Assembly: GCA_023425025.1 (NCBI GenBank)
Contig: JAFADG010000045.1
Location: 8,172-72,171, forward strand
Origin: Bacillota bacterium
Lineage (GTDB): Bacteria > Bacillota > Clostridia > Christensenellales > Aristaeellaceae
Direction: 5' to 3'
DNA length: 64,000 bases
Notes under the pieces: generated by a model
What the model was told of the DNA's origin: nothing
The model's database searches: none
Seen by the model: the letters and a program-made list of their open reading frames with translations, nothing else
Shown here: in pieces, positions 10,950-50,872 of the stretch
Position numbering within the stretch: the first letter of the stretch is position 1
Layout: every line of letters starts with the position of its first letter
Made by a program: the position numbers and the translations under genes

Positions 10950-11007
10950 CCGTATCCATACTAAGCATTTCCCTGGCCAAGTAATATTGCTTTCATACGC
11001 ATGCAAA

Positions 11008-11047: not shown

Positions 11048-11056
11048 GACGCTGAT

Positions 11057-18671: not shown

Positions 18672-18704
18672 GGCAAATACCTTTCCGATATTTATTTTCA
18701 TAGA

Positions 18705-18770: not shown

Positions 18771-18829
18771 AATATCCCAATCACAATGATTATCTTAACG
18801 ACCTCACTTTTGACATTGAGGTGAATACA

Positions 18830-23534: not shown

Positions 23535-23535
23535 G

Positions 23536-24735
23536 TCAGTCCACCAAGACCGGGTCAAAGCTTTCCTGCCACGGCAGACCCCACTTGTTCAGCGCATCCA
23601 TAAAGGGATCGGGGTCGAATTGCTCCATATTGAACACGCCGGGCTTTTTCCACTGGCCGCTCATCACCAGCATGGTGCCGATCATGGCCGGCACGCCGGT
23701 GGTGTAGGATATGGCCTGGGAGCCGACCTCACGATAGCATTCCTGATGGTCGCAGATGTTGTACAGGTAATAAGTCTTGGGCTTGCCGTCCTTGATACCC
23801 CTGAAAATGCAGCCGATGTTGGTCTTGCCCTTGGTGCGGGGGCCCAGGGACGCGGGGTCGGGCAGCACGGCCTTTAAAAATTGCAGGGGGATGATCTCGC
23901 GGCCCTCGTACATAATGGGCTTGATGGAGGTCATGCCCACGTTTTCCAGGCACTTTAAGTGCGTAAGATAGCTTTGTCCGAAGGTCATGAAGAAGCGGAT
24001 ACGCTTGACGCCGGGAATGAACTTGGCCAGCGATTCAATTTCTTCGTGATGCAGCAGGTACATGTCCTTTTGGCCGATGCCCTCGAAGTTGTACTCCCGC
24101 TTGATCTCCATGGGCTCGGTCTCCACCCAGCGGCCGTTTTCCCAGAAGCTTCCCATGGCGGTGACTTCGCGAATGTTGATCTCCGGGTTGAAGTTGGTGG
24201 CAAAGGGATAGCCGTGGTCGCCGCCGTTGGCATCCAGAATGTCGATCTCGTGAATCTCGTCAAAGTGATGCTTCAAGGCGTAGGCGGAAAACACGCTGGT
24301 GACGCCGGGGTCAAAGCCGCTGCCCAGCAGCGCGGTGATGCCGGCTTCTTTAAAGCGGTCATGGTAGGCCCACTGCCACTTGTATTCAAACTTGGCGGTG
24401 TCGGTGGGCTCGTAGTTGGCGGTGTCCACGTAGTCCACTTTCGTGGCCAGGCAGGCATCCATGATGGTCAGGTCCTGGTAGGGGAGAGCCAGGTTCAACA
24501 CCACATCGGGCCGGAACGCTTCGATGAGGGCGATCAGCTCCTGCACGTTGTCGGCATCCACCTTCGCGGTGGAAATCTTGGTTTTGCCGCCGGAAAGCTT
24601 GTCCTTCAAAGCGTCGCACTTGGACTTGGTGCGGCTGGCGATCATGATTTCTTCAAACACTTCGCTGTTCTGACAGCATTTGTGGATGGCGACGCTGGCG
24701 ACGCCGCCGCAGCCGATGATGAGCGCTTTTTTCAT
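23536..24735 (-). CDS. carboxynorspermidine/carboxyspermidine dehydrogenase (saccharopine dehydrogenase family)
   Basis: MKKALIIGCGGVASVAIHKC Rossmann N-terminus, and family blocks YVDTANYEP and LGSGFDPGVTSVF. ATG at 24735 is preceded by GAGGAGG. Confidence 0.85.
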   Translation of the reverse strand: MKKALIIGCGGVASVAIHKCCQNSEVFEEIMIASRTKSKCDALKDKLSGGKTKISTAKVDADNVQELIALIEAFRPDVVLNLALPYQDLTIMDACLATKVDYVDTANYEPTDTAKFEYKWQWAYHDRFKEAGITALLGSGFDPGVTSVFSAYALKHHFDEIHEIDILDANGGDHGYPFATNFNPEINIREVTAMGSFWENGRWVETEPMEIKREYNFEGIGQKDMYLLHHEEIESLAKFIPGVKRIRFFMTFGQSYLTHLKCLENVGMTSIKPIMYEGREIIPLQFLKAVLPDPASLGPRTKGKTNIGCIFRGIKDGKPKTYYLYNICDHQECYREVGSQAISYTTGVPAMIGTMLVMSGQWKKPGVFNMEQFDPDPFMDALNKWGLPWQESFDPVLVD

Positions 24736-24779
24736 GGTGGTGACCTCCTCATGTGCATAGAGAGTGCGGAAAGGATTTC

Positions 24780-24836
24780 GCATCTGCGGATGCGACCAAA
24801 GGGCTTTCCGATCGCCCTTTGGAAACCTTCGGACGC
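24780..24836 (-). repeat. family A repeat, copy 3 (speB / dehydrogenase spacer)
   Basis: GCATCtgcgGATGCGACCAAAGGGCTTTCCGATCGCCCTTTGGAAACCTTCGGACGC. The core is identical to copy 2, but the flanking hairpin has a different sequence and keeps its pairing. Confidence 0.85.
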
Positions 24837-25020
24837 TGTCCCCCAGATGATATAGAATAATTTTTCCTTCCCTAAAACAGGGATTCTTAAGGGATATATT
24901 CCGGCTGGCTCAATCGTCGCGCCGCTACGCTACCGCTTGCGTCGCTCGTTTCACCAGCTTCCTCCGCCTCACTTTATCCGCCACAGGCGGCGTTCGGCTT
25001 CGGAACCTTTAGCGGAGAGT

Positions 25021-25043
25021 CCAGGGAGGCAGCTCCTCCCTGG
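25021..25043. other. GC-rich hairpin immediately after the speB stop
   Basis: CCAGGGAGG cagct CCTCCCTGG. No T-tract, and it lies inside the operon. Confidence 0.5.
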
Positions 25044-25048
25044 CGGGC

Positions 25049-25900
25049 TTAAAGTATCGTCAGCAGCAGTTCCCGCAGAACCTTCAGGGCGGTTGCGGTG
25101 GATGTGCCGCTTTGGTCATAGGGCGGGGAAAGCTCATTGATATCACAGGCCACCACGTTGGCGTCTTTCAGGGACAGGATGGCATTCAGCAGCTCCATGA
25201 AGGTGACGCCGCCGGCTTCCGGCGTGCCGGTGCCGGGGAAGGCGGAAGGGTCCAGCACATCCAGGTCGATGGTTACATACAGGGGCTTGCCTGCAAGCTT
25301 TTGAACCGTCTGCGCGAAGCCGTTTAAATCAAACCTGCGCATGGTCACGTGGCCCTCGTCCGCCCACTTGAATTCCGGCCTGTCGCCGGAGCGGATGCCG
25401 AACTGATAAATGCGGCCGTCGCCCAGGATGTCCCAGCAGCGCCGAAGCACCGTAGCGTGGGAAAGGGTTTCTCCCAGGTAATCCTCCCGCAAATCGGTAT
25501 GGGCGTCAAAGTGCAGTATGTGCAGGCCCGGGTACTTTTTCACCGCGGCCCGCACCGCACCCAGCGTGACCAGGTGCTCACCGCCCAGCATGACGGGAAT
25601 CTTGCTGTCGGCAAGGATGACGTCCGTCTTTTCCTCGATCTTATTGAGCGCTGCCTGCACGTTGCCGAAAGGCAAATCCAGGTCGCCGCCGTCAAACACA
25701 CTGTAATCCGTCAGGTCCTTGTCCTGGTAGGGGCTATAGGTTTCCAGGCCGTAGCTTTCCGCCCGCATGACCCGGCTGGCAAACCGCGTGCCGGGCCGAT
25801 AGGAGGTGGTGCCGTCAAAGGGCGCGCCGAAGATCACAGCCTTCGCTTCCTCATACCCGCTGTCGCAGCCCAGAAAGGTGGATATGTTTTCAGTCCACAT
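25049..25900 (-). CDS. speB: agmatinase
   Basis: Ureohydrolase Mn-site motifs LHFDAHTDL and TIDLDVLDPS. ATG at 25900 is 8 nt after GGAGGA and overlaps the speE 3' end by 11 nt. Confidence 0.88.
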   Translation of the reverse strand: MWTENISTFLGCDSGYEEAKAVIFGAPFDGTTSYRPGTRFASRVMRAESYGLETYSPYQDKDLTDYSVFDGGDLDLPFGNVQAALNKIEEKTDVILADSKIPVMLGGEHLVTLGAVRAAVKKYPGLHILHFDAHTDLREDYLGETLSHATVLRRCWDILGDGRIYQFGIRSGDRPEFKWADEGHVTMRRFDLNGFAQTVQKLAGKPLYVTIDLDVLDPSAFPGTGTPEAGGVTFMELLNAILSLKDANVVACDINELSPPYDQSGTSTATALKVLRELLLTIL

Positions 25901-26750
25901 GCTCCACATCCTCCAACAGCTTTTGCACATAGTTGGGCAGCGCAAACGCGCCGCGGTGCAGGTTGGTGTTATAGTACTTGGTATCCAGCTCCAGCTTCTT
26001 CCACTCCTTGGCCTTTAAATCCCTTACGGGATGGTATTCCTTGGAGGCGAAGCCGAACAGCCAGTACCCCGAAGGATAGCTGGGGATGTGGGCCTGGTAG
26101 ACGCGGCTGATGGGAAAGGATTCGGTGATCCGCTTATGGGCCCGCTGCATGGCCAGCGCGTCGGCGTCGTAAAAGGGGCTTTCATGCTGGTTGACCATGA
26201 TGCCGTCGTCTTTCAGCGCCTTGTAGCAGTTGCCGTAAAACTCGCGGGTGAAAAGGCCTTCTCCCGGTCCGAAGGGGTCGGTGGAGTCCACAATGATCAA
26301 ATCATACGTGCTCTCGCGGCTGCGCACGAATTTCAACCCATCCTGGTAGTGGATGTGCACCCGCGCATCATCAAAGCCGCAGGCAGTTTGGGGCAGGTAT
26401 TCCCTGCACACCTTGACCACCATTTCATCGATTTCCACCAGGTCAATGCTCTTGAGGGTTTCATAGCGGGTCAGCTCCCGCAATATGCCGCCGTCCCCCG
26501 CGCCGATCACCAGCACGTTTTCCACATTGGGATGCACCGCCATGGGCACATGGGTCAGCATTTCGTGGTAAATAAACTCATCCTTTTCGGTGAGCATCAT
26601 AAACCCGTCCAGCGTTAAAAACCTTCCGAACTCCTGCGATTCAAACACGTCGATGCGCTGGAAGGCGCTCTGGCCGCTGTACAGCTGACGATCCACCTGA
26701 ATCGAAAGCTTCACCTGAGGCGTGTGTTTTTCGGAAAACCAGAATTCCAT
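25890..26750 (-). CDS. speE: spermidine synthase (aminopropyltransferase)
   Basis: 286 aa. WFSE N-terminus, VLVIGAGDGGILREL, and DLIIVDSTDPFGPGEGLF. Confidence 0.92.
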   Translation of the reverse strand: MEFWFSEKHTPQVKLSIQVDRQLYSGQSAFQRIDVFESQEFGRFLTLDGFMMLTEKDEFIYHEMLTHVPMAVHPNVENVLVIGAGDGGILRELTRYETLKSIDLVEIDEMVVKVCREYLPQTACGFDDARVHIHYQDGLKFVRSRESTYDLIIVDSTDPFGPGEGLFTREFYGNCYKALKDDGIMVNQHESPFYDADALAMQRAHKRITESFPISRVYQAHIPSYPSGYWLFGFASKEYHPVRDLKAKEWKKLELDTKYYNTNLHRGAFALPNYVQKLLEDVEHVD

Positions 26751-26832
26751 GATGCCTCCTTCCGGGGGCGCAATCCCCAGGCCCCCGCCAAAGGGACCAG
26801 TCCCTTTGGAATTCCTATATAAATTTCACATT

Positions 26833-26890
26833 GCGGCCGAAGGTTTCCAAAGGGCAAGCGGAAAGCCCTTTGGTCGCGCCAGCAGGCGCG
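26833..26890 (+). repeat. family A repeat, copy 4 (speA / speE spacer)
   Basis: GCGGCCGAAGGTTTCCAAAGGGCAAGCGGAAAGCCCTTTGGTCGCGCCagcaGGCGCG. A related mini-hairpin CCAAAGGGAccagTCCCTTTGG lies at 26788-26809. Confidence 0.85.
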
Positions 26891-26895
26891 AAAAT

Positions 26896-28341
26896 CTATA
26901 TAACCAGAATCTGTTTCACTTCCGGGTCCTGGGTCCCGGTCAAAAAGCAGCCCTTTTCCCTTGCATAGGAAATATACCCGATGATTTCCTTTGTGATTCG
27001 CTCGCCCGGCGCCACGATGGGGATGCCGGGGGGATAGCTCATCACGTACTCCGCGGCGATGCGGTCCGTGCTATCGTTAAGGGGCAGCAGCGTTTTGTCG
27101 GCGTAAAAGGCTTCCTTGGGCGTCAGCACCACCTGGGGGCTGATATATTCGTGATCCATCAAGCCGGCACGGTCCTTCTTGAAGCGCCGGCGGATCTCGC
27201 CCAGCGCCCCGATCAGCCGCTCGATATCCTGGAAACGGTCGCCCACGGACAGGTAGGCCAGTATGTTGCCGATATCGCCAAACTCGATTTGTATATCGTA
27301 TTCATCCCGCAACAGATCAAAGACCTCGATGCCCGCCAGTCCTACATCCAGCGTGTGGGCGGCCAGCTTCGTCTCGTCAAAGTCAAACACCGTGTCGCCG
27401 TTGATCAGCTCCCGGCCATAGGCGTAATAGTCGCCGATGCTGTTGATCTCATCGCGGGCATAACGCGCCATTCCGGTGACCTTGCGGAAGATCTCCGCGC
27501 CCTGTATGGCTAGCTTGCGGCGGGAAATATCCAGGCTGGACATCAAAATGTACGATCCGCTGGTGGTCTGGGTCAGGTTGATGATCTGGCGCACATGGTT
27601 GGGGTTGACTTTGGGGCCGCACAGGAGAAAGGAGCTTTGGGTCAGCGACCCGCCGGACTTGTGCATGCTCACCGAGGCCATATCCGCACCGGCCTGCATG
27701 GCGGATACAGGCATGTTCTCGCCGAAGTAAAAGTGGGTGCCGTGGGCTTCATCCACCAGCACCAGCATACCGGCTTCGTGGGCCATGCGCACGATTTCCC
27801 GCAGGTTGGAGCAGATGCCGTAATAGGTGGGGTTGTTGACCACCACGGCCTTGGCGCCGGGGTTTTGCCGTATGGCTTCCGCCACATCATAAACGGACAT
27901 GCCCAGGGCGATACCCAGCCGCTTGTTCACCTGGGGGCTGACGTATACCGGCGTCGCGCCGGTCAATACCAGGGCGTTGATCACGCTGCGGTGGACGTTG
28001 CGGGGCACAATGATCTTTTCGCCCTGCCGGACAGAGGATAAAATCATCGCCTGCACGGCGGAGGTGGTGCCGCTGACCATAAAAAAGGCGGCGGAGGCGG
28101 AAAACGCCTGGGCCGCCAGCTCTTCCGCCTCGCGGATCACGCTGGTGGGATGCACCAGGCTGTCCACCGGCTTCATGGAGTTCACATCCATGGAGACGCA
28201 TTTTTCGCCCAGCAGAGCAACAAGTTCCGGGTTGCCCTTTCCCCGTTTGTGGCCGGGCACGTCAAAGGGAACCACCCGGTTTTTTTGCACAAATTGCAGG
28301 GCTTCCACGATGGGCGCACGGTTCTGGTCGAGCTTTGCCAT
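26896..28341 (-). CDS. speA: PLP-dependent arginine (Orn/Lys/Arg family) decarboxylase, Bacillus SpeA type
   Basis: 481 aa. FDVPGHKRG, and the PLP-lysine block SMHKSGGSLTQSS. Collinear with B. subtilis SpeA as I recall it. Confidence 0.8.
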   Translation of the reverse strand: MAKLDQNRAPIVEALQFVQKNRVVPFDVPGHKRGKGNPELVALLGEKCVSMDVNSMKPVDSLVHPTSVIREAEELAAQAFSASAAFFMVSGTTSAVQAMILSSVRQGEKIIVPRNVHRSVINALVLTGATPVYVSPQVNKRLGIALGMSVYDVAEAIRQNPGAKAVVVNNPTYYGICSNLREIVRMAHEAGMLVLVDEAHGTHFYFGENMPVSAMQAGADMASVSMHKSGGSLTQSSFLLCGPKVNPNHVRQIINLTQTTSGSYILMSSLDISRRKLAIQGAEIFRKVTGMARYARDEINSIGDYYAYGRELINGDTVFDFDETKLAAHTLDVGLAGIEVFDLLRDEYDIQIEFGDIGNILAYLSVGDRFQDIERLIGALGEIRRRFKKDRAGLMDHEYISPQVVLTPKEAFYADKTLLPLNDSTDRIAAEYVMSYPPGIPIVAPGERITKEIIGYISYAREKGCFLTGTQDPEVKQILVI

Positions 28342-28344
28342 GTG

Positions 28345-29124
28345 TCAGCCTCCTTTGCGGTATACGTTGGAGCCGGAGAAGACCTCGATCATTTCCTGCC
28401 GAAGGTTGGTGGTGATCTCCAGCCGCGTTTTGGGCGGCAGTTCGTAGATGTCGGTATTGAACAGGTAATGCTGCAGGTCTATTTCCTTGATCATCATCTT
28501 GGTGTGGAACAGGTTGGCTTGGTACACGTTGATGTCGATGGCGTCATAGTGTTCCAGGGTTTTCTTGTTGATATAGTCCTGTATGGAGGTGATGTCGTGG
28601 TCGATAAATATTTTCTTGCCCGATAAGTCCCTGGTAAAACCCCGCACCCGGTAATCCATGGTGATGATGTCAGAATCAAAGCTGCCGATCAGATAATCCA
28701 GGGTGGAAAGGGGCGTGATCTCCCCGCAGGTGGCCACATCAATATCCACCCGGAAGGTGGCCAGGGCCGTCTCGGGGTGGAATTCGGGATAGGTGTGCAC
28801 GGTGACGTGGCTCTTGTCCAGGTGGGCCACCACGGTTTCTGAATCCATGCGGGAGAGCATCGATTCCTCGGCAATGAGGAACGTGACGCTGGACCCCTGG
28901 GGGTCGTAATCCTGGGTGGATATGTTGAGCACATGGGCGCCGATCATCTCAGTCAGCTTGCGAAGGATCTCGGTCAGCCGCTCGGAGTTGTACTGCGCAT
29001 CGATATAGGCGATATAATCCCGCTGTTCCCTTGGCGTTTTGGCGTAGCATACGTCATAAATATTAAAGCTCAAGGATTTTGTCAGGTTGTTGAACCCATA
29101 CAGCGTCATCTTTTCCTGGCTCAC
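28345..29124 (-). CDS. speD: S-adenosylmethionine decarboxylase proenzyme (E. coli SpeD type)
   Basis: [23 protein letters not shown], and the self-processing site [15 protein letters not shown]. The GTG at 29124 is 8 nt after GGAGG. The track start at 29133 overlaps that Shine-Dalgarno sequence. Confidence 0.88.
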
Positions 29125-29145
29125 GGTCGCCACCTCCCCTCAAAT

Positions 29146-30642: not shown

Positions 30643-31528
30643 ATGCCCGGCGGCCCTGGAATACACTTACTTAAAAAATGGAAGGGTGAGCGGGTTGAAA
30701 CGTAAAATCGCGAAGCTTCTTCGTGGCGTGCCGGCGGTGGATGGGGCCGGGGTCCGGCTGGTCCGCGTATTAGGCTACCATGACGTGTATGACTTTGATC
30801 CTTTTTTGATGCTGGATTCCTTTGATTCCCAAAATCCCGACGATTATGTCCGCGGCTTTCCCATGCATCCCCACCGGGGCATTGAAACCATCACGTACCT
30901 GATTGAGGGAAAGATCGAGCATCAGGATAGTTTGGGAAACAAAGGCGTCATCCTTTCCGGGCAAAGCCAGTGGATGACGGCGGGGCGCGGCATCCTGCAC
31001 CAGGAAATGCCCAAGCCCTCCGAACGCATGCTGGGCTTTCAATTGTGGTTGAACCTGCCCAAAGCGGAAAAGCTGTGCGAGCCGGCCTATTTTGAAATCG
31101 CAGAGGAAATGATTCCTGTCGTCAAAACGGAGGGGATCGAAGTGCGGGTTATTGCCGGCAGCTACGGCGGCGCCGTTGGACCCAGACCCAGGCACATACA
31201 AGCCACGCTATTGGATATAAGCCTGGAGGAGGGCGCCACGTTAACGCTGGATACAAAGCCGGAGGAGACGGTATTCGCGTTTGTCATCCTGGGCAGCGCC
31301 TTTGCCGGCGGGCAGCCTTTGGAGGAGAAAACCGCCGTGCTGTTTGGGCCGGGGGATACGGCGGAGGTCACCGCGTCGGAGCATCAGGACGCACGGGTGA
31401 TCTTCTTTTGCGGAAAGCCCGTGAAGGAACCCATCGCCTGGGGCGGGCCGATTGTAATGAATACCGAGGAGGAGCTTAATCAGGCGTTTCGGGAGCTGCG
31501 GGAAGGGACGTTTATTTCGACCCGTTAG
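30635..31528 (+). CDS. pirin-family protein
   Basis: Bicupin with the metal motif FPMHPHRGIETITYLIEG. Start uncertain: the ATG at 30635 overlaps the methyltransferase stop, and a TTG at 30695 is an alternative. Confidence 0.88.
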   Translation: MDECPAALEYTYLKNGRVSGLKRKIAKLLRGVPAVDGAGVRLVRVLGYHDVYDFDPFLMLDSFDSQNPDDYVRGFPMHPHRGIETITYLIEGKIEHQDSLGNKGVILSGQSQWMTAGRGILHQEMPKPSERMLGFQLWLNLPKAEKLCEPAYFEIAEEMIPVVKTEGIEVRVIAGSYGGAVGPRPRHIQATLLDISLEEGATLTLDTKPEETVFAFVILGSAFAGGQPLEEKTAVLFGPGDTAEVTASEHQDARVIFFCGKPVKEPIAWGGPIVMNTEEELNQAFRELREGTFISTR

Positions 31529-32178
31529 TGTGCCTCAATATACGCCTTAATCTGCCCATGCCATTCATCCGGCTCATATACGCCGATCTGAGTATCTTCT
31601 GAAAACAACAAATCCACCAGGTGCCGGGGCCTTTTCCCTCCGATATGCATAGCCTTCACACACGAAACGCAATAGACCACCACGTCCTCACAGGGCATTT
31701 CATCTGCCCTGTTTTTCATGTACTCCTTGACCTTTTCTACCGGCAGCTGCCCGTACAGGCTGTCGCCGCAGCAGATGGATTTTTCCCTTGTATGCTCCGG
31801 CTCTACCACCCTGATGTTCATGCGGGCAAGCAATGCGCGCACCGCGTCGTGTACCCGCTTTTCCGCGCGGGTAGGGCAGGCGTCATGGATGGTCATGGGC
31901 TGTCCGTGATAATCGGGAAAGAGAAAGGCGTCGATTTCTGCTAATTTCTCCCAGATAGATGCGGTAGAAATCCCCTCGTACAGCGAGCGGAAGCGCCGGT
32001 CGCAGCCCGAGCAAGTGGTGATGATTTGGGTGCCGTGCGCAAGGCCCGGCTCATGGTGGCAGCAAATGTGATGCTCGGGGATAGTTTCGCCGGCTTCATT
32101 CAGGAATGCGGTGATTTGATGGGCCAGGTGGGGCTTGTACAGCATCAGCGCACAGCCGGGGGCGTAGACTCTTGCCAT
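31525..32178 (-). CDS. cysteine-rich (CCG-type) Fe-S oxidoreductase-like protein
   Basis: 217 aa with two Cys-rich modules (HHICCHHEPG...TTCSGC and SICCGDS...VVYCVSC), resembling HdrB/GlpC-type CCG domains. Confidence 0.5.
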   Translation of the reverse strand: MARVYAPGCALMLYKPHLAHQITAFLNEAGETIPEHHICCHHEPGLAHGTQIITTCSGCDRRFRSLYEGISTASIWEKLAEIDAFLFPDYHGQPMTIHDACPTRAEKRVHDAVRALLARMNIRVVEPEHTREKSICCGDSLYGQLPVEKVKEYMKNRADEMPCEDVVVYCVSCVKAMHIGGKRPRHLVDLLFSEDTQIGVYEPDEWHGQIKAYIEAH

Positions 32179-32428: not shown

Positions 32429-32803
32429 ATGGAAGATAAGGCGAGGGTACTGCAAACGATGCGGCACATTGATAAAAACCTTACGGAGCCGTTCAGCCTT
32501 GATGGGCTGGCCGGCATGGCGCACCTGTCAAAATACCACTACCACAGGCTTTTTCACAAGGTGGCGGGGGAATCCGTTGCCAAATATATCAGCAGACGGC
32601 GAATGGAAATAGCATCCTACGAATTGCTGTCAACCGACCAGCCCATTATTGACATTGCCTTAAAGTACCAATATGGCTCCCAGGAGGCTTTCTCCAGGGC
32701 TTTTAAAAGGGTGCATGGTGTTATGCCGGGCCAGTACAGGCGCATTCACGGTGCGCGTAGGGTCCAAAGCGGCATAAACGCAATGATGAAGCTTGCCGCT
32801 TGA
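32429..32803 (+). CDS. AraC-type HTH-only transcriptional regulator (124 aa)
   Basis: [23 protein letters not shown] ... [30 protein letters not shown]. No sensor domain. ATG at 32429 follows GGGGTGAGGG. Confidence 0.75.
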
Positions 32804-32822
32804 CAGGCGAACAGGAGGGAAT

Positions 32823-33422
32823 ATGGGCTATCTGGTGCCAACGGTAATAGAACAGACGAACAGGGGCGAGCGCGCTTACGACATTTTTTCCAGGCTGCTC
32901 AATGACAGGGTGGTTATGCTCAACGGCGTGGTAAGCAATGAATCCGCCAGCGTGATCATTGCCCAGATGCTTTTTCTGGAATCAAGCGACTGCAATGCGG
33001 ACATCCACTTTTACATCAACAGCCCCGGCGGTTCCATTACGGATGGGCTCGCTATTCTGGATACGATGAATTATATCAAGTGTGATGTTTCGACTATCAG
33101 CATTGGTCAATCCGGCAGCGCCGGCTCGCTGCTTTTGGCGGCCGGCAAAAAGGGCAAACGGTTTGCGCTGAAAAACAGCGAGGTGCTCATTCACCAGCCG
33201 GCCATCTCCGGGGGGCTTTCCGGCCAGGCCACCGATATCAAAATCCACAGTGACTGGCTTGACAAAACAAAAGAAAGGCTCCACGCAATCTACAGCGAAT
33301 TGACGGGCCAGCCCCTTGCAAAGATCAAGGCCGACATGGAGCGGGATTTTTATATGACCGCCCAGCAGGCAGTGGAATATGGGCTGGTTGACAGGATATT
33401 GCTCAACCGTAACGAGCAGTGA
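32823..33422 (+). CDS. clpP: ATP-dependent Clp protease proteolytic subunit (paralogue-like)
   Basis: [22 protein letters not shown]. Ser-His-Asp context is retained ([24 protein letters not shown]). ATG at 32823 follows AGGAGGG, 19 nt after the AraC-HTH stop. Confidence 0.85.
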
Positions 33423-33443
33423 TGCGCTTGGAAACAAGACATA

Positions 33444-33482
33444 GAAAACGACGCAATGGCCGCTGGCCAGTGCGTCGTTTCT
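33444..33482. terminator. bidirectional terminator between convergent clpP and hypA
   Basis: GAAAACGACGCA / TGCGTCGTTTC stem. TTTTCTATG follows on the minus strand and TTTCTTAT on the plus strand. Confidence 0.6.
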
Positions 33483-33492
33483 TATATCCCAT

Positions 33493-33834
33493 CTACCCCG
33501 CCACAATCTCCTTGATCACAAACTCCCGCCCGCCCAGCACTTCGGGGCTTGCATCCCCGCAGGCCGGGCATTTTTTACGGTTTTTCAGGATATTGTACAC
33601 CCGGCCGCAGGCCCGGCAACGGCCGTTGCCGGGCAGAATTTCAATCTCCAGGCGCGTGTTTTCCAGCATCGTGCCATAGGCGGCGGCAGGGTAGCACTGC
33701 TCCACAAAATAGGGCACGACAGAAGACAGCTCGCCGATCTGCAATACCAGTGTTTCCACCCTTGTCACGTTCTGCGCTTTGGCGATGCCCTCCACTACCC
33801 GCACGATCTCGGCCACAATGCCCAGCTCATGCAT
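33493..33834 (-). CDS. hypA: hydrogenase/urease-type nickel incorporation protein HypA
   Basis: 113 aa. MHE N-terminal Ni motif and Zn site CRACG...CPACG. Its start overlaps the stop of the upstream flavoprotein by 8 nt. Confidence 0.9.
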   Translation of the reverse strand: MHELGIVAEIVRVVEGIAKAQNVTRVETLVLQIGELSSVVPYFVEQCYPAAAYGTMLENTRLEIEILPGNGRCRACGRVYNILKNRKKCPACGDASPEVLGGREFVIKEIVAG

Positions 33835-36565
33835 TCTGCGCCTCGCGGGTGAAGGATTTGCGCACCTTTTTGACGGCGATCTTGACCACGCGCTTGAGTG
33901 CGTGGGGCACCACGGCCTTTTTTAAGTTAAACAGCGTTACGCCTTCGCCGTCGTACTTGCGGGAAAGGGTAATGGCGTCAAACCGGCATTTGGTGGTGCA
34001 CTGGCCGCAGCCCACGCAAAGGAATTCATCCACCACCACCGCGCCGCAATGAAGGCACCGCTCGGTTTCCTTTTTCACCTGCTCCTGCGTAAAGGTCAGG
34101 CGCGCATCGGCAAAGGGACTGGCGGCCTTCTCGTGGGCGGCCTGCTGACGCGGCATGCGGTCAAAGCTATCAAGCAGCAGGTCTTCCTTGTTCAGCGCCT
34201 TGTATGCACGCCTGTCGCGGCCGAGCACCAAGCTTTGACCGGGCTGTACAAAGCGGTGGAGGGAGATTGCGCCCTGCTTGCCGGCGGCGATGGCGTCGAT
34301 GGCAAACTTCGGGCCGGTGTGAACATCGCCGCCGGCGAAGATATCCGGTTCGGCGGTTTGATAGGTGAAGCCGTCGGCCTGCACCGTACCGTTTTTGTTC
34401 AGGGCTGCCTTGGTGCCGTCCAGCAGCTTGCCCCAGTCGATGCTCTGGCCGATGGATAAGAGAATATGGTCGGCTTCCACTATGATGGTTTCGCTCTCAT
34501 CATACTTGGGCGCGAACCTTCCGCTTTCATCAAACACGGATACGCAGCGCTTGAATTCCATGCCCTTTACACGGCCGTTTTCTACGATGATCCTTTTCGG
34601 CCCCCAACCGTTTTCGATATGTATGCCTTCCTGCTGCGCTTCCTCGATCTCTTCGGGCAGGGCCGGCATTTCCCTTTCGCTCTCCAGGCAGTACATCACG
34701 ACCCCGGCCTTTGTCAGCCGCGCGGCGGTCCGGGCTACGTCCACCGCCACGTTGCCGCCGCCGATGACCAGCGTGCGGCCGGAAAGGGGAACATCCTCCC
34801 CAAGGGTTACGCGGCGGATAAAATCGATGCCGTTTTGCATGCCCTGGGCATCCTCGCCCTCGATGTTCAATTTCCGCCCCGCCTGGGCGCCGATGGCGAT
34901 ATAGAACGCCTCAAAGCCTTGTTCGCGAAGCTGTGCAATGGTCACATCGCGGCCTACTTCCACCCCTGTTTGTATGGTAACGCCAAGCTCCTTCACAATA
35001 TTGATCTCGGCCTTGACCACATCTTTTGTCAGGCGGAAGGCGGGAATGCCGAACATCAGCATGCCGCCCGGCTCCTTCTCCTTTTCAAACACGGTGACGT
35101 TGTACCCGTCGATGGCCAGGTAATAGGCGCAGGAAAGGCCCGCGGGGCCGGCGCCGATAACGGCGATCTTCTTTTGATAATCATGGCGCTTTTGCGGCAT
35201 AAATCGGTGCTGCGCATTCAGATCCTGCTGGGCGATGAACTTTTTGATTTCATCGATGGCGATGGGCTCGTCCACCTCCGCCCTGGTGCATGCGCTTTCG
35301 CAGCGCCTGTTGCAAATGCGGCCGCACACCGCGGGGAAGGGGTTTTCCTTTTTGATCAGTTCCAGCGCGTCGCAGAACCTACCCTGGGCGGCCAGCTTGA
35401 TGTAGCCCTGTATGCCAATGTGGGCGGGGCACTCGGTTTTGCAGGGCGCGGTGCCGGTATCCACCACGTTTTTGCGGTTGGTGCGGTAATCCGGGTTCCA
35501 GTGATCGGGCGTCCAGTGTGTGTCTCTGGGTGTGTCTTTACGTATGATCTTCTCCGGCACAGGCTTTTTGGAGCAGACCTTTTGCCCCAATTGCAGGGCG
35601 TTCACCGGGCAGTTTTCCACGCACTGGCCGCAAGCCACGCACTTTTCCCGGTCGACTTGCGATACATAGTTGGAGCGCACCATGTCGGCGTTTAAGAACA
35701 TTTCCGCCGTGCGCATGGAAAAGCAGCCGCAGCCGCAGCAGTTGCAAATGGCGTGGGTATGGCCGCTGCCGTCCAGGTTGGGGATCTCGTGCATCAGCCC
35801 GTTTTCCTCGGCCCGGCGCAGGATGGCGTAAACTTCATCCTTATTGACTTCGCGGCCCCGGCCGGTGCGGATGTAATACTCGGCGGCGTGGCCCATTTGT
35901 ATGCACATGTCTTCTTTCAGGTGCCCGCAGCCCTCGCCCATGATTTCCCTTGCGGTGCGGCAGGAGCAGTTGGATACGGAGAAGATGGTGTTCGCCTCGA
36001 TATACTTGGATAATTCCTCATACGATGCCCGGCGGCTTTCGCCGTCGATGGCCTTTTCGATGGGGATGACCCGCATCAGCCCGATGCCCACCGGTGTGAG
36101 GCCCACGGTTTTTCCGCCGCGCAGACGGCCATAGGCCTCAAAAGCCTGGGCAATCTGCGGGTATTTTTTTGCGTTGGTGGGGTGGTTGGTCATCATCTCC
36201 ATGATGCCGGGCACCCAGGTGTCGTACCAGAACGTATCCTTGCCATCAATGGTATTGACAAAGCACACCCCGGCGTCGGCCAGCTCCAATAAGATGCGGT
36301 AGCATTCATCGACAGGCTTGTCCATCCGCCGGCTGATGGCCTCCGCCGTCACCTTTTCTTGGAGTGCCATGCTCATGCAAACTTCCGCCATTTCATCCGT
36401 TACCACCGGCTCCAAGATCAAATACTCCGGATCGCTGAAGGTATAGGCATCCCTGGCGCCGGGCTTTTTGCGGCCGATATGGTTGGCCAGGGCCAGCACC
36501 TTTACACTGCCGGTGCGCTGCGGTGGTACCTGTATGCCGGGCTGTAACGGATGGGTTTGTGCCAT
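33827..36565 (-). CDS. 912-aa multidomain Fe-S flavoprotein: Cys-rich N-terminal module + ferredoxin motif + GltD-like FAD/NAD(P)H oxidoreductase + C-terminal ferredoxin-like motif
   Basis: N-terminal module has CSCRTAREIMGEGCGH and HAICNCCGCGCFSMR. A CVACGQCVENCP motif follows. The GltD-like Fe-S region is CPAHIGIQGYI...VCGRICNRRCESACTR, with KIAVIGAGPAGLSCAYYL (FAD) and LVIGGGNVAVDVARTA (NAD(P)H). C-terminal CLHCG...CVGCGQCTTKC. ATG at 36565 follows AAGGGGGA. Confidence 0.8.
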   Translation of the reverse strand: MAQTHPLQPGIQVPPQRTGSVKVLALANHIGRKKPGARDAYTFSDPEYLILEPVVTDEMAEVCMSMALQEKVTAEAISRRMDKPVDECYRILLELADAGVCFVNTIDGKDTFWYDTWVPGIMEMMTNHPTNAKKYPQIAQAFEAYGRLRGGKTVGLTPVGIGLMRVIPIEKAIDGESRRASYEELSKYIEANTIFSVSNCSCRTAREIMGEGCGHLKEDMCIQMGHAAEYYIRTGRGREVNKDEVYAILRRAEENGLMHEIPNLDGSGHTHAICNCCGCGCFSMRTAEMFLNADMVRSNYVSQVDREKCVACGQCVENCPVNALQLGQKVCSKKPVPEKIIRKDTPRDTHWTPDHWNPDYRTNRKNVVDTGTAPCKTECPAHIGIQGYIKLAAQGRFCDALELIKKENPFPAVCGRICNRRCESACTRAEVDEPIAIDEIKKFIAQQDLNAQHRFMPQKRHDYQKKIAVIGAGPAGLSCAYYLAIDGYNVTVFEKEKEPGGMLMFGIPAFRLTKDVVKAEINIVKELGVTIQTGVEVGRDVTIAQLREQGFEAFYIAIGAQAGRKLNIEGEDAQGMQNGIDFIRRVTLGEDVPLSGRTLVIGGGNVAVDVARTAARLTKAGVVMYCLESEREMPALPEEIEEAQQEGIHIENGWGPKRIIVENGRVKGMEFKRCVSVFDESGRFAPKYDESETIIVEADHILLSIGQSIDWGKLLDGTKAALNKNGTVQADGFTYQTAEPDIFAGGDVHTGPKFAIDAIAAGKQGAISLHRFVQPGQSLVLGRDRRAYKALNKEDLLLDSFDRMPRQQAAHEKAASPFADARLTFTQEQVKKETERCLHCGAVVVDEFLCVGCGQCTTKCRFDAITLSRKYDGEGVTLFNLKKAVVPHALKRVVKIAVKKVRKSFTREAQNA

Positions 36566-36778
36566 GATCGGTTCCCCCTTATGTGATGCTGATGAATGAA
36601 CGGGCGTATTGTATATCCTTGCTTGGCATGGATATATGAGGCTTGGCGGGCGGTTGATAACCGTCCCTACGCTGATGGGCATAATTGTATTGTATGCCCC
36701 AGCAGATATTATTCCGGCAGTGAAGCCAATAAGCAATCAAAGCCGTAGGGGCGAATGATCATTCGCCCGTATTTACGG

Positions 36779-37573
36779 TCATTCCCGCGTGAGTTTGAGA
36801 ACGTCTCCAGAGGCTTCCCCCTGGGGGGAAGCTGTCATCGAAGGTGACTGATGAGGGGGCATACCCAGGCCAGATAAATGCAGCGAAAGCACCTCATCCG
36901 GCGCTTCCTTCCGCCACGCTTCCACCTCGCCGCGCAGCCAGGCCGCCCATTCCTCCAGCCCCTCGCCAGTGCGCGCGCAAATGGGGATCACCCTGGCGCT
37001 GGGGTTGAGCCTGGCCACCCGCTCCCTGACCTTCTGCACATCAAAATCAAAATACGGCAGCACGTCGATTTTGTTGATCAGCACCACATCGCAAATGGTA
37101 AACATCAGCGGATACTTCAAGGGCTTGTCATCCCCCTCAGGCACGGAGAGGATCATGACGTTTTTGATGGCGCCGGTATCAAACTCCGCGGGGCAGACCA
37201 GGTTGCCCACGTTTTCCAGTATCGCCAGGTCAATATCGTCTGTGCCAAAGCCCTTTAGCCCTTCGCGGGTCATGCCGGCATCCAGGTGGCACATGCCGCC
37301 GGTATGCAATTGGATGACCTTTACGCCGGTTTCGGCGATGGCCTTCGCATCCACATCGGAATCGATGTCGGCTTCCATGACGCCGATGGAAAATGCATCC
37401 TTCAAAAGCGCAATGGTTCCTTTTAAGGTTGTGGTTTTCCCCGCACCGGGGGAGGACATGAGGTTTAACAGGAACACGCCCTTTTCCGTAAGCTCTGCGC
37501 GCAGGCGGCTGGCCTCCCGGTCATTGTCCGCAAATACGCTTTGCTTGATCTCCAGTATGCGAAAATTGCTCAT
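36779..37573 (-). CDS. hypB: nickel-chaperone GTPase HypB, with a roughly 40-aa C-terminal tail encoded by a repeat element
   Basis: P-loop SSPGAGKTT, ENVGNLVCPAEFD, and NKIDVL. The last roughly 40 codons (EAPDEVLSLHLSGLGMPPHQSPSMTASPQGEASGDVLKLTRE) read through repeat family B (36810-36905). Confidence 0.88.
   Translation of the reverse strand: MSNFRILEIKQSVFADNDREASRLRAELTEKGVFLLNLMSSPGAGKTTTLKGTIALLKDAFSIGVMEADIDSDVDAKAIAETGVKVIQLHTGGMCHLDAGMTREGLKGFGTDDIDLAILENVGNLVCPAEFDTGAIKNVMILSVPEGDDKPLKYPLMFTICDVVLINKIDVLPYFDFDVQKVRERVARLNPSARVIPICARTGEGLEEWAAWLRGEVEAWRKEAPDEVLSLHLSGLGMPPHQSPSMTASPQGEASGDVLKLTRE
36810..36905 (+). repeat. structured repeat, family B, truncated copy overlapping the hypB 3' end
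   Basis: GAGGCTTCCCCctggGGGGAAGCTGTCATCGAAGGTGACTGATGAGGGGGC...GCACCTCATCCGGCGC. Matches the reverse complement of 43258-43384 in all conserved stems. Confidence 0.8.
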
Positions 37574-37594
37574 GTTGTTTTCTCCGTTATTCCA

Positions 37595-38596
37595 TCAAAT
37601 TGCCACGGTATGCGTTTGGGCCAGTTCCTTCACCGCACGATACGCTTTGAGGTCGGTGTACAGCTCGCCCTTGTAGGGGTTGCGACGGGTCTTGCGTGCC
37701 TTGTAAACCATATAAACCAATACGCCGATGTTGGCAAGCAGCGCCAAGGCGCTTACGATGAAGTAGATGGTGGGATTGTAGGTGGAATTCACGCGGAAAG
37801 CCCCCGCATCCTGGAACATGGGGAAGGTTTGCGCGAACATGCACCACAGCGCCAGCGTTTGCGCCCGGTGCTGCAGCCAGGCGCCCTTGCCCACCGTAAA
37901 GGAGCACAGCGTCGGCGCCAGCAGCAGCGCAAAGCCGCAATACCAGGCGTGGTGGGGCAGGCAGTTGTAGGTGTAGGCAAAGTTCCAAAGGTCATAGGCG
38001 ATGATCCAGAACCAGAGCATATCGGGCCAGAGCATATCCCGGCTGCCGTCCGACTTGGTTGCCTTGCGCAGGCAGATGCCGAACCAGCCCGTGATGGTGA
38101 TAATGTTCAAAAGACCCGCGATGGCGTTCATATAGTTCCAGGGGCCGCCCATGAGCAGAACGGGTACGTCGGCGGCAGCATCCTGGGCCATGACGGCGTA
38201 TGTGATGCCCACCTCGATATCCCGGGCGCAGGCTTCCAGTATGTTGACGGCCAGGATCAGCGGCGGAAAGCACAAGGCGATCCTGTTATCCGCCAGCCTC
38301 CACTCCTTGCCGTTCTTGCGCTTGCCCTTCAAATGGCGGATGCACCAGAAGCCGATGCAGCCGGCCGTGGACGAATACACCTTGGCCAGGTGAAACCAGT
38401 CGGTATAGGTGCTGGATTTCAGCACCGTGAACCAAAGCACGGAAAGCACCGCGGGCAGCACCACAAAGCAGAAAAAGCCCATCCACTTGAAGCGCCGCGA
38501 CACCTCGTTCAAGGCAAACAACACTGACAGCACCAGCAGCCAGATGAGCAGCGAAGAAACGAAGGTTGCACCTTCCGCGTAATTGAACGTGAACAT
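37595..38596 (-). CDS. polytopic membrane protein of unknown function (about 9-10 TM, Trp/aromatic-rich)
   Basis: 333 aa and strongly hydrophobic. ATG at 38596 follows GGGAGGA. Ends 21 nt upstream of hypB. I saw none of the Ni/Co permease signatures I know (NiCoT HX4DH, HupE). Confidence 0.7.
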   Translation of the reverse strand: MFTFNYAEGATFVSSLLIWLLVLSVLFALNEVSRRFKWMGFFCFVVLPAVLSVLWFTVLKSSTYTDWFHLAKVYSSTAGCIGFWCIRHLKGKRKNGKEWRLADNRIALCFPPLILAVNILEACARDIEVGITYAVMAQDAAADVPVLLMGGPWNYMNAIAGLLNIITITGWFGICLRKATKSDGSRDMLWPDMLWFWIIAYDLWNFAYTYNCLPHHAWYCGFALLLAPTLCSFTVGKGAWLQHRAQTLALWCMFAQTFPMFQDAGAFRVNSTYNPTIYFIVSALALLANIGVLVYMVYKARKTRRNPYKGELYTDLKAYRAVKELAQTHTVAI

Positions 38597-38849
38597 GTTA
38601 TTCCTCCCACGCCTGTGTTTGCTTTGGGTTTCAGATGGGAAAACGGATGATGAGGACGGTATGATAGTGGACAGACCAGAGTGTAACAAGAATGTTATCA
38701 GTTTAACATTCTGCTTTGCGTACTGTCAATAGAACGCGGAAAAATCAAGCGGTAACAAGCGTTTTTCTTGCAGGATTCATTAAAATGATATATCATAAAT
38801 ACACGTGGTCCGTGGTTGAACCAGTATCAAGGAAGGCCGGGGTATCGCC

Positions 38850-39557
38850 ATGCAGTTTCAAAAGCTCAGCGCGCCGACGCTCAAGGAATTGTTCATTCGG
38901 GAAATGGAATCTATGATCTTATCCGGCCGGCTGCCGGTGGGCACCCAACTGCCCCCGGAGAGGGAACTGGCCGCCGCCATGCAGGTGAGCCGGGCAGTGG
39001 TCAACGCCGGCATCGTCGAGCTTGCGAAAAAGGGCTTCCTGGTGGTGCGGCCGCGGCTGGGCACCTATGTGGCCGATTACCGGCGGGATGGCACCATTGA
39101 AACCTTTCTTTCCATTGTAGGCTACAACGGCGGCATGCTAAGGCAGGAGGAGGTGCGCTCCATCCTGGAACTGCGCATCGCGCTGGATACCCTGGCCGTG
39201 CAGCTTTGCGCCGCCCGCATCACCGATGGGGAGCTGAGCGCGCTAAGGGCCGCCGCCAATGCCATCGGCCAATCGAAAACCGATGAGGAGGCGGTGGGCC
39301 ACGCCTTTTCCTTTCAGCACCAATTGGCCCTGTATTCCGGCAACACGCTGCTGCCCATTATCTTCAGCTCCTTCAAATCCCTGACCCGCACGCTGTGGCT
39401 AAGGTTTTGCATGCTCTACGGTGTACAGGCGTTGTTTGAAAACACCGACGCACTGTGCGCAAAATTGGAGGCGCGGGATTTTCAGGGGGCGATATGCTGC
39501 CTGACGGAGACGGTGAGAAACAGTATCGAGGGAAACAGAAAGATCTATTATTTATAA
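38850..39557 (+). CDS. GntR-family (FadR/FCD subfamily) transcriptional regulator
   Basis: N-terminal wHTH (LPPERELAAAMQVSRAVVNAGIVELAKKGFL) plus an all-helical FCD-like C-terminus. Divergent from the membrane-protein/hypB operon. Confidence 0.85.
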   Translation: MQFQKLSAPTLKELFIREMESMILSGRLPVGTQLPPERELAAAMQVSRAVVNAGIVELAKKGFLVVRPRLGTYVADYRRDGTIETFLSIVGYNGGMLRQEEVRSILELRIALDTLAVQLCAARITDGELSALRAAANAIGQSKTDEEAVGHAFSFQHQLALYSGNTLLPIIFSSFKSLTRTLWLRFCMLYGVQALFENTDALCAKLEARDFQGAICCLTETVRNSIEGNRKIYYL

Positions 39558-39858
39558 GAAAAATGTTATACATCAATCCATCGCCCTGCGGAAAACAATC
39601 TCAATGTGTTATTTGTGTAAAAAAACTGAATAATCACGGTCAAACCTGCCCATCTGTGCCAACCAGCCACCCATGCCCGATCCGCCCACGCCCAGCGCAA
39701 CATCCCTTTTCCTTTCTATATCGAACCCTCGGGGGAAGTCATGGCAGGGAGGGTGCCGTTGCGATTTCTCTACCCAAGGAGTCTGGCCAGACAAAAGCAA
39801 AGGCCGGACCGGCCGCCGGATTCGGAAAATACTGAGGCAATTCACGCATGCTAAATAA

Positions 39859-39904
39859 AATGGGCTGCCGCCCTGCGGCTGAGCCGCATAGGGGGCAGCC
39901 CATT
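39859..39904 (-). terminator. terminator after the 77-aa ORF
   Basis: AATGGGCTGCC / GGCAGCCCATT 11-bp stem, followed on the minus strand by TTTATTT. Confidence 0.6.
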
Positions 39905-39933
39905 GTTTCGAAACAGAAGCCGTTGGGGGAATT

Positions 39934-40167
39934 TTATGCTTCCCACTCGCTCAGCAGCGTTTCGCAGGCCGCGATCATCGCCCGCAGAACGCTGTCCTTG
40001 GCGTCGGTGCGGTCCATGTAGTTGTTACCCTGGTTCACATACATGCTCTGCAAAAGGCCGGTGAGATATTCTCTGGTAAACTCCGGGTCCGCGGCTTTGC
40101 GCAGCGTCAGGTTCGTATACTCGCGCTCAAACGCTTCATTATAGATCTGGTCCAGATCATGATCCAT
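39934..40167 (-). CDS. small hypothetical protein (77 aa)
   Basis: MDHDLDQIYNEAFEREYTNL... ATG at 40167 follows AAAGGAG. A strong hairpin plus T-run follows the stop. Confidence 0.55.
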   Translation of the reverse strand: MDHDLDQIYNEAFEREYTNLTLRKAADPEFTREYLTGLLQSMYVNQGNNYMDRTDAKDSVLRAMIAACETLLSEWEA

Positions 40168-40391
40168 AGCGAATCTCCTTTTCGGTGGCCGGCTCCGCTG
40201 CCCTGGCGCCCAGGGCGAAGCGTAGGCTGTTCCATTATATAAACAAGCGGCCCGGTACGCAAGCAAAAGCGTCGCTTTTTTGTGCAGTAGGGGGGATGCC
40301 CCCGTACAGCCAATGGATTATCAGAGGCGGGCGGGCAGGCAATTACACAAAAAACGCCCGGCTTATCGCCGGGCGGCTGTCATGAAAACAG

Positions 40392-40712
40392 TTACTGGCA
40401 CACCACCGCCGTGCCGGAGGCGGTCACCATCAGCATGCCGTTGTTGGCGCCCAGCACCTCGTAGTCGATATCCACGCCGACCACCGCGTTGGCGCCCAAA
40501 TCATGGGCCCGCTGCTCCATTTCGCGCAGCGCGTTTTGCCGTGCGTTAATCAGTTCCTCTTCGTAGCTGCCGGAGCGGCCGCCAAAAAAGTTGGACAGCC
40601 CTGCCGCAAAGTCCTTGATGAAATTGACGCCGGAGATGACCTCTCCAAAGACGATGCCTTTGTACTCCACTATGCGCTTGCCGTCAATGGACGGCGTGGT
40701 GGTGACGATCAT
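40392..40712 (-). CDS. YbjQ/UPF0145 family protein
   Basis: [25 protein letters not shown]...[11 protein letters not shown]...[13 protein letters not shown] is collinear with E. coli YbjQ. AAGGAGGA ribosome-binding site. Confidence 0.9.
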
Positions 40713-43257: not shown

Positions 43258-43384
43258 CCTTTCCCCTCAAGGGGAAGGTGGCGCGTAGCGCCGGATGAGG
43301 TACTTAGTTGCACTTGTCGAGCCGAGGCTTGGCACCTCATCAGTCACCTTCGGTGACAGCTTCCCCTCAAGGGGAAGCCTCCCG
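43258..43384 (-). repeat. structured repeat, family B, full copy (five consecutive hairpins)
   Basis: Five hairpins in order: TTCCCCtcaaGGGGAA (43261-43276), GGCGCgtaGCGCC (43280-43292), GATGAGGTAC...GCACCTCATC (43294-43341), GTCACCttcgGTGAC (43343-43357), GCTTCCCCtcaaGGGGAAGC (43359-43378). Confidence 0.8.
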
Positions 43385-43438
43385 CATGCTTGCCGCAACC
43401 CATTTTCAGAATGGGAAAAATTAGAGGAAACAAGAAAT

Positions 43439-50842: not shown

Positions 50843-50872
50843 CCTTTTTCTCAGTTGGGCCGGCTTGGCCGG

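Follow-up and report, generated by a model that had tools for sequence, protein, structure and literature searches.

Here we describe a five-gene unit found in a 64,000 nucleotide (nt) stretch of DNA from a Bacillota bacterium of the Aristaeellaceae (contig JAFADG010000045.1, positions 8,172 to 72,171; hereafter the window). The unit consists of a DUF5692-hypB-reductase-hypA operon and a divergently transcribed gene for a GntR/FCD regulator. The putative reductase is an iron-sulfur (Fe-S) flavoprotein of 912 amino acids (aa), and the locus is a typical member of the known, biochemically uncharacterised IsrA family. The best explanation of the whole, which we hold to be probable, is that of an IsrA-type reductase matured by a dedicated HypA and HypB. 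This explanation draws on the gene content, the protein architecture, the residue conservation and the hypA/hypB linkage that were observed in this analysis. The idea of a hyp-linked reductase was already published in 2023 (PMC10134865) and the window repeats that hypothesis. Its value is mainly confirmatory, in that it presents the commonest form of the published arrangement, to which it adds a candidate operator and a number of substrate leads.

The four genes of the operon are all on the minus strand. In the order of transcription these are the gene of the 333-aa polytopic DUF5692 membrane protein (38596-37595; PF18948, E=6e-119), hypB, which encodes a G3E GTPase nickel chaperone (37573-36779; TIGR00073), the gene of the IsrA-family Fe-S flavoprotein (36565-33827; Fer4, Fer4_20 and Pyr_redox_2) and hypA, which encodes a nickel metallochaperone (33834-33493; PF01155, E=2e-30). 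The regulator gene is found at 38850-39557 on the plus strand. Coordinates, strands and gene order had been given by an initial annotation made from the sequence, and the list of open reading frames (ORFs) reproduces them. Calculation from the coordinates likewise returns the 8 nt overlap between the hypA start and the flavoprotein stop (33827-33834) and the 21 nt that separate DUF5692 from hypB. The spacing between hypB and the flavoprotein gene amounts to 213 nt, and a GGGGG ribosome-binding site is present 8 nt ahead of the flavoprotein ATG at 36565. The sequence motifs noted by the same annotation are all present in the translations, with MHE and CRAC...CPAC in HypA, GAGKT, MCH, ENVGNLVCP and NKID in HypB, and CSCRTAREIMGEGCGH and HAICNCCGCGCFSMR in the N-terminal part of the flavoprotein.

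In the window, the cluster is not accompanied by any of the enzymes HypA and HypB are commonly associated with. Pfam screening of the 64-kb window, by scans or from precomputed matches and covering nearly all ORFs of at least 120 aa and a few shorter ones, identified no hydrogenase, urease, carbon monoxide dehydrogenase (CODH), LarA or hypCDEF, and a six-frame motif scan of the window identified no [NiFe] large-subunit or UreC signature. This agrees with the earlier remark that hydrogenase, urease and CODH genes are lacking. The remainder of the [NiFe]-hydrogenase maturation set, that is the endopeptidase and the genes of the large and small subunits, was not found in the 64 kb either. An Rfam scan of positions 32500-40500 at E<=1 for a riboswitch (e.g. 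NiCo) gave one chance-level match only. A genuine glutamate synthase is encoded in the window by gltB (1525 aa) and gltD (497 aa), at 14094-20314 on the plus strand, and therefore the 912-aa protein is not the cell's GltD.

The architecture of the flavoprotein, annotated before as a GltD-like core for flavin adenine dinucleotide (FAD) and NAD(P)H with ferredoxin motifs, is confirmed by Pfam matches with Fer4, Fer4_20 and Pyr_redox_2. The NfnB/GltD-like core (34280..35455, minus strand) combines Fer4_20, which holds two [4Fe-4S] clusters, at residues 371-450 (PF14691, E=7e-21) with the FAD/NAD(P)H-binding Pyr_redox_2 at residues 466-762 (PF07992, E=2e-27). It is preceded by a ferredoxin-type [4Fe-4S] motif at residues 303-331 (CVACGQCVENCP, with C331 downstream; 35573..35659, minus strand), of which residues 303-324 are matched by PF00037, and followed by a C-terminal ferredoxin-type Cys motif at residues 837-860 (CLHCG...CVGCGQCTTKC; 33986..34057, minus strand). 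Both motifs have invariant cysteines: C309, C312, C315, C319 and C331 for the N-terminal and C837, C840, C850, C853, C856 and C860 for the C-terminal one. The top PDB sequence matches of the core are 9bov, 8oh5 and 9n5u (NfnA), followed by NfnI (5jca) and GltD. Full-length homologues, with 67-91% identity, occur in Clostridia, spirochaetes, Chloroflexi and others.

Residues 1-300 have no Pfam family above cut-off. The core of this Cys-rich module, residues 195-285 (35711..35983, minus strand), is the proposed Ni/Fe-S active site. In 49 sequences with identities down to 41%, the invariant residues of the module are C200, C202, R203, C213, H215, C221 and H259, as well as C274, N275, C276, C277, C279, C281 and R285. 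When residues 120-300 were searched exhaustively with HMMER against 1.84 billion representative proteins, 1480 clusters were obtained with a threshold of E<=1e-3 and 576 with one of E<=1e-10. The homologues have two main architectures, the fused form of about 900 aa and a form of about 320-400 aa that consists of the module and a ferredoxin domain. Across both, at 26-52% identity, C200, C202, C221, C274, C276 and C281 are invariant, and R203, C213, H259, N275 and C277 occur in 90% or more of the sequences. Residues 1-300 were modelled with confidence by AlphaFold2, at a predicted local distance difference test score (pLDDT) of 85. Comparison of the module with the PDB by Foldseek gave weak matches with a winged-helix sub-domain only, none at E<=1e-3, and therefore the metal-binding part is without a solved relative. 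That the Cys-rich module lacks a solved structural relative is a point new to this study.

The motif CNCCGCGC of the module holds Cys-Gly-Cys twice, as C277-G278-C279 and C279-G280-C281. A Cys-Gly-Cys motif binds nickel in acetyl-CoA synthase. The A-cluster of that enzyme (Ni-Ni-[4Fe-4S]) resembles the module in having a dense Cys cluster with Cys-Gly-Cys beside a presumed Fe-S cluster, and in that a nickel chaperone would be required. It differs in that Foldseek finds no fold similarity and in that distant members, which read CNCCxC, do not keep the residue that separates C277 from C279. The comparison was made before by Kronen et al. (PMC10134865) and we treat the resemblance as a lead rather than as a test.

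IsrA was described as the "putative isoprene reductase", together with its "clade 9" homologues, by Kronen et al. (2023, mSystems; PMC10134865). In Acetobacterium wieringae ISORED-2 the isr operon codes for IsrA, a 901-aa FAD-dependent oxidoreductase, two HypAs, one HypB and a ferredoxin; its products were the proteins most strongly induced by isoprene, and the ISORED-2 genome contains neither a [NiFe]-hydrogenase nor hypCDEF (PMC10134865). The same study reported that the five-gene isr arrangement is unique to two A. wieringae strains, that IsrA has 47-49% identity with other Acetobacterium homologues, and that in a neighbourhood network of 988 IsrA homologues co-occurrence is 0.73 for HypA, 0.56 for HypB, 0.40 for DUF5692 and 0.21 for TetR. 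As the place of nickel insertion it proposed a Cys6 site that two CxC motifs form within the first 270, unannotated residues of IsrA. The same cluster has been found in a 1,3-butadiene-reducing strain and was named "putative diene reductase cluster" (Jin et al. 2025, PMC12509576). For Pelotomaculum, two 2026 preprints describe induction by isoprene of hypA (373-fold) and hypB (585-fold), and put forward the IsrA-like protein as a hypothesis.

The window protein has the features of this family. It is a single polypeptide of about 900 aa. Its N-terminal module of about 300 aa is Pfam-free and carries CxC twice, its FAD/NAD(P)H core is NfnB-like and includes Fer4_20, and two further ferredoxin-type motifs are present. 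The CxC pairs of IsrA (180/182 and 254/256) are found again at 200/202 and 274/276 of the window protein, and the Fer4 motif of IsrA (289-300) at 309-320, all at the same offset of +20; the N-terminus of the window protein is about 20 residues longer than the consensus. The C-terminal Cys motif at residues 837-860 is the counterpart of a second ferredoxin-type domain that was reported for IsrA. For the Cys6 site of IsrA ("cluster V"), C200-x-C202 and C274-x-C276 are conserved, together with C213, C221, C277 and C281. As in the isr operon, hypA and hypB are immediate neighbours of the reductase gene and the cluster is without hydrogenase genes. DUF5692, a frequent neighbour of family members, adjoins the reductase cluster in the window as well. 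The isr operon proper is different. It has two hypA genes and a gene for a 350-aa ferredoxin paralogue of the N-terminal module, and DUF5692 and GntR have not been described for it. In the window hypA is single, DUF5692 and the divergent GntR/FCD regulator are encoded, and the ferredoxin paralogue is lacking.

The initial annotation had suggested that the neighbourhoods of homologues of the 912-aa protein be tabulated. One genome per GTDB species was scanned with an alignment of the N-terminal module, which gave at least 524 species genomes with a relative; the best 80 loci were fetched, and the 62 with both flanks were counted. The best 80 loci are from Clostridia, spirochaetes, Chloroflexi, some Deltaproteobacteria-type metagenome-assembled genomes (MAGs) and Acholeplasmataceae, with Candidatus Limiplasma, Christensenella, Lawsonibacter and Oscillospiraceae MAGs as the closest named carriers; Acetobacterium and Pelotomaculum loci are not among them. 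HypA or HypB is encoded within 3 kb in 60 of the 62 loci (97%) and both are in 51 (82%), with HypA at 57 (92%) and HypB at 54 (87%). Within 5 kb, DUF5692 is found at 45 loci (73%) and a homologous GntR at 31 (50%). The published co-occurrence values for HypA, HypB and DUF5692 are similar to these frequencies. The order of the window (divergent GntR, DUF5692, hypB, reductase, hypA) is the modal one, with 14 of the 62 loci, and some loci have TetR in place of GntR.

A second census was made on metagenome contigs and seeded with a more divergent subclade. It resulted in 45 assessable loci, with 35-75% identity to the seed. HypA is adjacent in 42 of these (93%), HypB was found in 17 (38%) and DUF5692 in 7 (16%). 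Since HypA is found at 92% and 93% in the two censuses, its adjacency is a near-universal trait, and linkage with HypB and DUF5692 is a trait of the subclade that holds the window's protein. The linkage between hyp genes and reductase is not due to chance. Moreover, of the 130 linked HypAs, 129 have the Ni-binding Met-His-Glu at the N-terminus and 121 have the Zn site, the linked HypBs have the G-domain Cys-His in 92 of 93 cases, and the [NiFe] large-subunit motif is absent from the 80 best loci. The suggestion that the flavoprotein, and not a hydrogenase, is the client of HypA and HypB is therefore strongly supported by the linkage in both censuses, by the absence of a hydrogenase motif and by the conservation of the Met-His-Glu.

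Among these loci, Clostridium sp. Marseille-P2415 (L006:12663-19774) has three HypA ORFs within 7 kb downstream of the IsrA-like gene; their identical HMM scores suggest a recent segmental duplication. Terrisporobacter mayombei (L075) and Paraclostridium bifermentans (L076) each have two DUF5692 paralogues that flank the hypB/IsrA-like genes, and in both DUF5692 is found between the reductase gene and hypA.

The HypA of the window scores 105.7 bits with PF01155, for a cut-off of 28.9, and has the MHE Ni site as well as the CxxC...CPxC Zn site. HypB scores 247.2 bits with TIGR00073, for a cut-off of 121.2. Its metal sites comprise the G-domain Cys-His...Cys only, as the N-terminal high-affinity site is absent; none of the 93 linked HypBs has an N-terminal CxxCGC or a His-rich stretch. 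The pair thus resembles the HypA and HypB that serve [NiFe]-hydrogenase or Helicobacter urease in the MHE Ni and Zn sites of HypA, in the Cys-His...Cys of the HypB GTPase and in the presumed order of transfer, from HypB via HypA to the client. It is unlike these in that the client in the window is neither a hydrogenase large subunit nor a urease, in that hypCDEF, endopeptidase and structural genes are lacking from the 64 kb, and in the missing N-terminal site of HypB.

The 3' end of hypB is occupied by a repeat element of about 100 nt (36790..36905, minus strand), a second copy of which is found 6.5 kb away at about 43285-43385 on the plus strand. The inserted repeat replaces the last few codons of hypB, adds a foreign tail of 41 aa and widens the gap to the flavoprotein gene. 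HypB is as a result 264 aa long, against 227 aa in an orthologue with 91% identity, and similarity ends at residue 223.

A mechanism can be proposed that accommodates these observations. NAD(P)H would reduce the FAD in the NfnB/GltD-like core, upon which electrons would run along four [4Fe-4S] clusters, two in Fer4_20, one in the N-terminal and one in the C-terminal ferredoxin motif. They would arrive at the family-specific Cys-rich module (C200, C202, C213, C221, C274, C276, C277, C279, C281 and H259), where an unactivated C=C bond, most likely that of a conjugated diene, might be reduced. HypB, as GTPase, and HypA would be the dedicated maturation factors that load a metal into the reductase. 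We consider it reasonably probable that this metal is nickel, and the Cys-rich module is the most likely site. A substrate of the conjugated-diene type is a possibility that we put forward tentatively, as the leading candidate among substrates.

A number of observations weigh against this proposal. The HypA of the window scores 77.1 bits with TIGR00100, which is below the equivalog cut-off of 88.1, and no HypB is found near 62% of the more divergent homologues. Pelotomaculum carries an IsrA homologue, yet has [NiFe]-hydrogenases (2026 preprints). The literature searched gave no nickel measurement, purified enzyme or knockout for any member of the IsrA family. Membership of the IsrA family, which was assigned from defining features of the protein and its neighbours, and a functional link between HypA/HypB and the reductase are very probable. 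The main point against the module as nickel site is provided by stand-alone proteins of 320-390 aa that share the Cys-rich module without linkage to hypA/hypB (Kronen et al., PMC10134865). One example was found here, P0225 of locus L083, which has no hyp neighbours upstream, the sole side that its contig covers. The module could therefore bind only Fe-S. A further protein, P0190, was rejected as stand-alone module protein, as it is the front half of a frameshifted full-length gene (locus L084).

Several of these points fit with HypA and HypB maturing the flavoprotein with another metal (Zn, Fe or Co), or being a general assembly or targeting factor for the Cys-rich cluster, in which case their hyp names would be misleading. 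G3E GTPases (PF02492, the CobW/HypB/UreG family) work with several different metals, the window HypB and all 93 linked HypBs have no N-terminal high-affinity Ni site and no His-rich stretch, HypA remains below its equivalog cut-off, and the stand-alone module proteins manage without hypAB. We nevertheless regard this as unlikely, given that HypB clears the TIGR00073 cut-off at twice the threshold and has retained the G-domain Cys-His...Cys that serves for Ni in HypB of the Helicobacter type, and that the Met-His-Glu Ni site of HypA is kept almost without exception. Less probable still is that hypA and hypB serve a [NiFe]-hydrogenase, a urease or another known Ni enzyme encoded elsewhere in the genome, with their position around the flavoprotein being incidental. 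[NiFe]-hydrogenases do occur in some organisms with IsrA homologues, among which Pelotomaculum schinkii, but the genes adjoin each other in 60 of 62 species, which belong to several phyla, and at 42 of the 45 divergent loci, hypA and the stop codon of the reductase overlap in the window, A. wieringae ISORED-2 has the cluster and lacks both [NiFe]-hydrogenase and hypCDEF, and the 80 best loci have no hydrogenase motif. By this conservation an incidental position is close to refuted, and we consider it very improbable.

It is also conceivable that the flavoprotein works as an NAD(P)H:ferredoxin oxidoreductase of the Nfn/GltD kind or as a module for electron input, in which the Cys-rich module holds an extra Fe-S cluster and the protein has no organic substrate of its own. 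The core does align with NfnA, NfnI, the GltD small subunits and the NAD(P)H-input domains of formate dehydrogenase-type enzymes; for NfnB/GltD small subunits (PDB 5jca, 4ylf and 2vdc, and 9n5u for NfnA) the alignment covers residues from about 370 to 775, with E=1e-49 to 1e-91. The window protein differs from these subunits by the additional 300-aa Cys-rich module and two ferredoxin motifs, and its operon has no gene for a partner subunit (NfnA or GltB). The NCBIfam equivalog scores are all far below their cut-offs, with 285.9 against 471.75 for gltA (TIGR01316), and PRK12771 gives 455.8 against 516. The genuine gltB/gltD pair elsewhere in the window, the 13 invariant residues and lack of a known fold relative of the module, and the fact that the A. 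wieringae family member is the only redox protein induced by isoprene all argue against it. Above that, a role in electron input leaves the near-universal linkage with hypA unexplained. We estimate that it is improbable, and favour the reductase matured by HypA and HypB over it.

Leads towards the substrate of this reductase were found in the neighbourhoods of related clusters. Apart from the five core genes, a single specific neighbour recurs among the 80 genome loci, a gene for a protein with an amine-oxidase fold. It is present at six loci (L022, L025, L031, L047, L061 and L070; e.g. L022:6690-7964), where it is co-oriented and upstream, and accompanied by a helix-turn-helix gene. Its top full-length PDB match is 2b9w (E=3e-55), the Propionibacterium acnes polyunsaturated fatty acid (linoleate) isomerase, an enzyme that makes the conjugated diene t10,c12-conjugated linoleic acid (CLA). 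Three metagenome loci also have a match to the amine-oxidase-fold gene near the cluster. A metagenome contig (L084:2344-7429) has the order TetR, DUF5692, MCRA/oleate hydratase, HypB and a frameshift-split IsrA-like gene; MCRA is absent from the 160 fetched loci except for this one. A. woodii and A. fimetarium likewise have a gene for MCRA/oleate hydratase in the cluster (PMC10134865).

Paraclostridium bifermentans carries the cluster (L076), and conversion of linoleate via CLA to trans-vaccenate has been reported for C. bifermentans, C. sporogenes and C. sordellii (PMC13365329; Verhulst 1985, as cited in PMC12254105). The only relatives that have been tied to a physiological process act on isoprene and 1,3-butadiene, both of which are conjugated dienes (PMC10134865, PMC12509576). 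The isomerase and hydratase neighbours and the diene substrates of Acetobacterium together suggest that some members reduce conjugated fatty acids. Reduction of conjugated fatty acids, hinted at by the linoleate-isomerase-like and oleate hydratase genes in some related clusters, is an idea new to this study. In its fullest form it holds that the product of the gut and sediment clusters is a nickel-dependent reductase acting on the conjugated dienes of fatty acids, with DUF5692 at the membrane handling nickel or the lipid substrate, which we consider doubtful. The window has no isomerase or hydratase gene and therefore the fatty-acid idea is an extrapolation for this locus. If true, such a fatty-acid diene reductase would account for the "CLA reductase" of Clostridia and spirochaetes, a step in the biohydrogenation of linoleate that is poorly defined.

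Regarding regulation, the protein encoded divergently from the operon was annotated as a FadR-type GntR, and matches with PF00392 (E=1e-14) and PF07729 (E=9e-11), both above cut-off, bear this out; none of the NCBIfam equivalogs is reached. Upstream of DUF5692 a promoter-like site, TTGACA-18-TAAACT with an extended -10 TG, is found at 38729-38700 on the minus strand, with 10 of 12 matches. A perfect inverted repeat of 9 nt, AGAATGTTA-N6-TAACATTCT at 38689-38712, overlaps the -10 region of this site and forms a candidate GntR operator. With no more than one mismatch, TGTTA-N6-TAACA is present in the corresponding intergenic region at 12 of the 35 GntR-linked loci, where about 0.5 are expected as drawn from other 450-nt windows of the same 35 loci. 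Both the position of the inverted repeat over the -10 and its recurrence in GntR-linked loci fit with repression by the divergent GntR/FCD protein, which is likely the repressor of the operon. A candidate GntR operator that overlaps the operon promoter is predicted here for the first time.

The DUF5692 protein matches PF18948 over profile positions 5-302 of 304. Mean column identity amounts to 77% for 30 homologues that have 72-91% identity to the window protein, and the invariant positions include many Asp, His, Arg, Asn and Cys, among which LPHHAWYCG. This is unusually high conservation for a membrane protein. The AlphaFold2 model is of moderate confidence (pLDDT 71) and largely helical, with 11 helices of at least 15 residues. 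Foldseek gave no PDB match at E<=1e-3, with chance-level matches to G-protein-coupled receptors and rhodopsin only, which neither favours nor excludes a transporter. DUF5692 may be involved in nickel transport or in handling of the substrate.

If nickel is confirmed, the reductase would represent a further class of nickel enzyme and a new client for HypA/HypB, which were earlier tied only to hydrogenase and urease. If the proposed activity is true, the reaction, in which unactivated C=C bonds are reduced, would be a chemically demanding one. As the family is widespread and many carriers are gut Clostridia and spirochaetes, its substrates could be relevant to the turnover of lipids or terpenes in guts, rumen and sediments.

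Elsewhere the window contains fatty-acid synthesis genes, a beta-galactosidase, an AdhE-type dehydrogenase, ABC transporters and regulators. Two ORFs, at 50855-52738 on the plus strand (627 aa) and 10164-11219 on the minus strand (351 aa), have no Pfam match at E<=1e-5. At 31525-32178 on the minus strand, between a pirin gene and an AraC-type regulator, a Cys-rich protein of 217 aa is encoded that has a weak CCG (HdrB-like) match. Finally, a polyamine biosynthesis cluster is found at 22398-29133 on the minus strand. It comprises genes for S-adenosylmethionine (AdoMet) decarboxylase, Orn/Lys/Arg decarboxylase, spermidine synthase and an arginase-fold enzyme, as well as for a saccharopine-dehydrogenase-like protein and an Orn/DAP/Arg decarboxylase (DAP, diaminopimelate).

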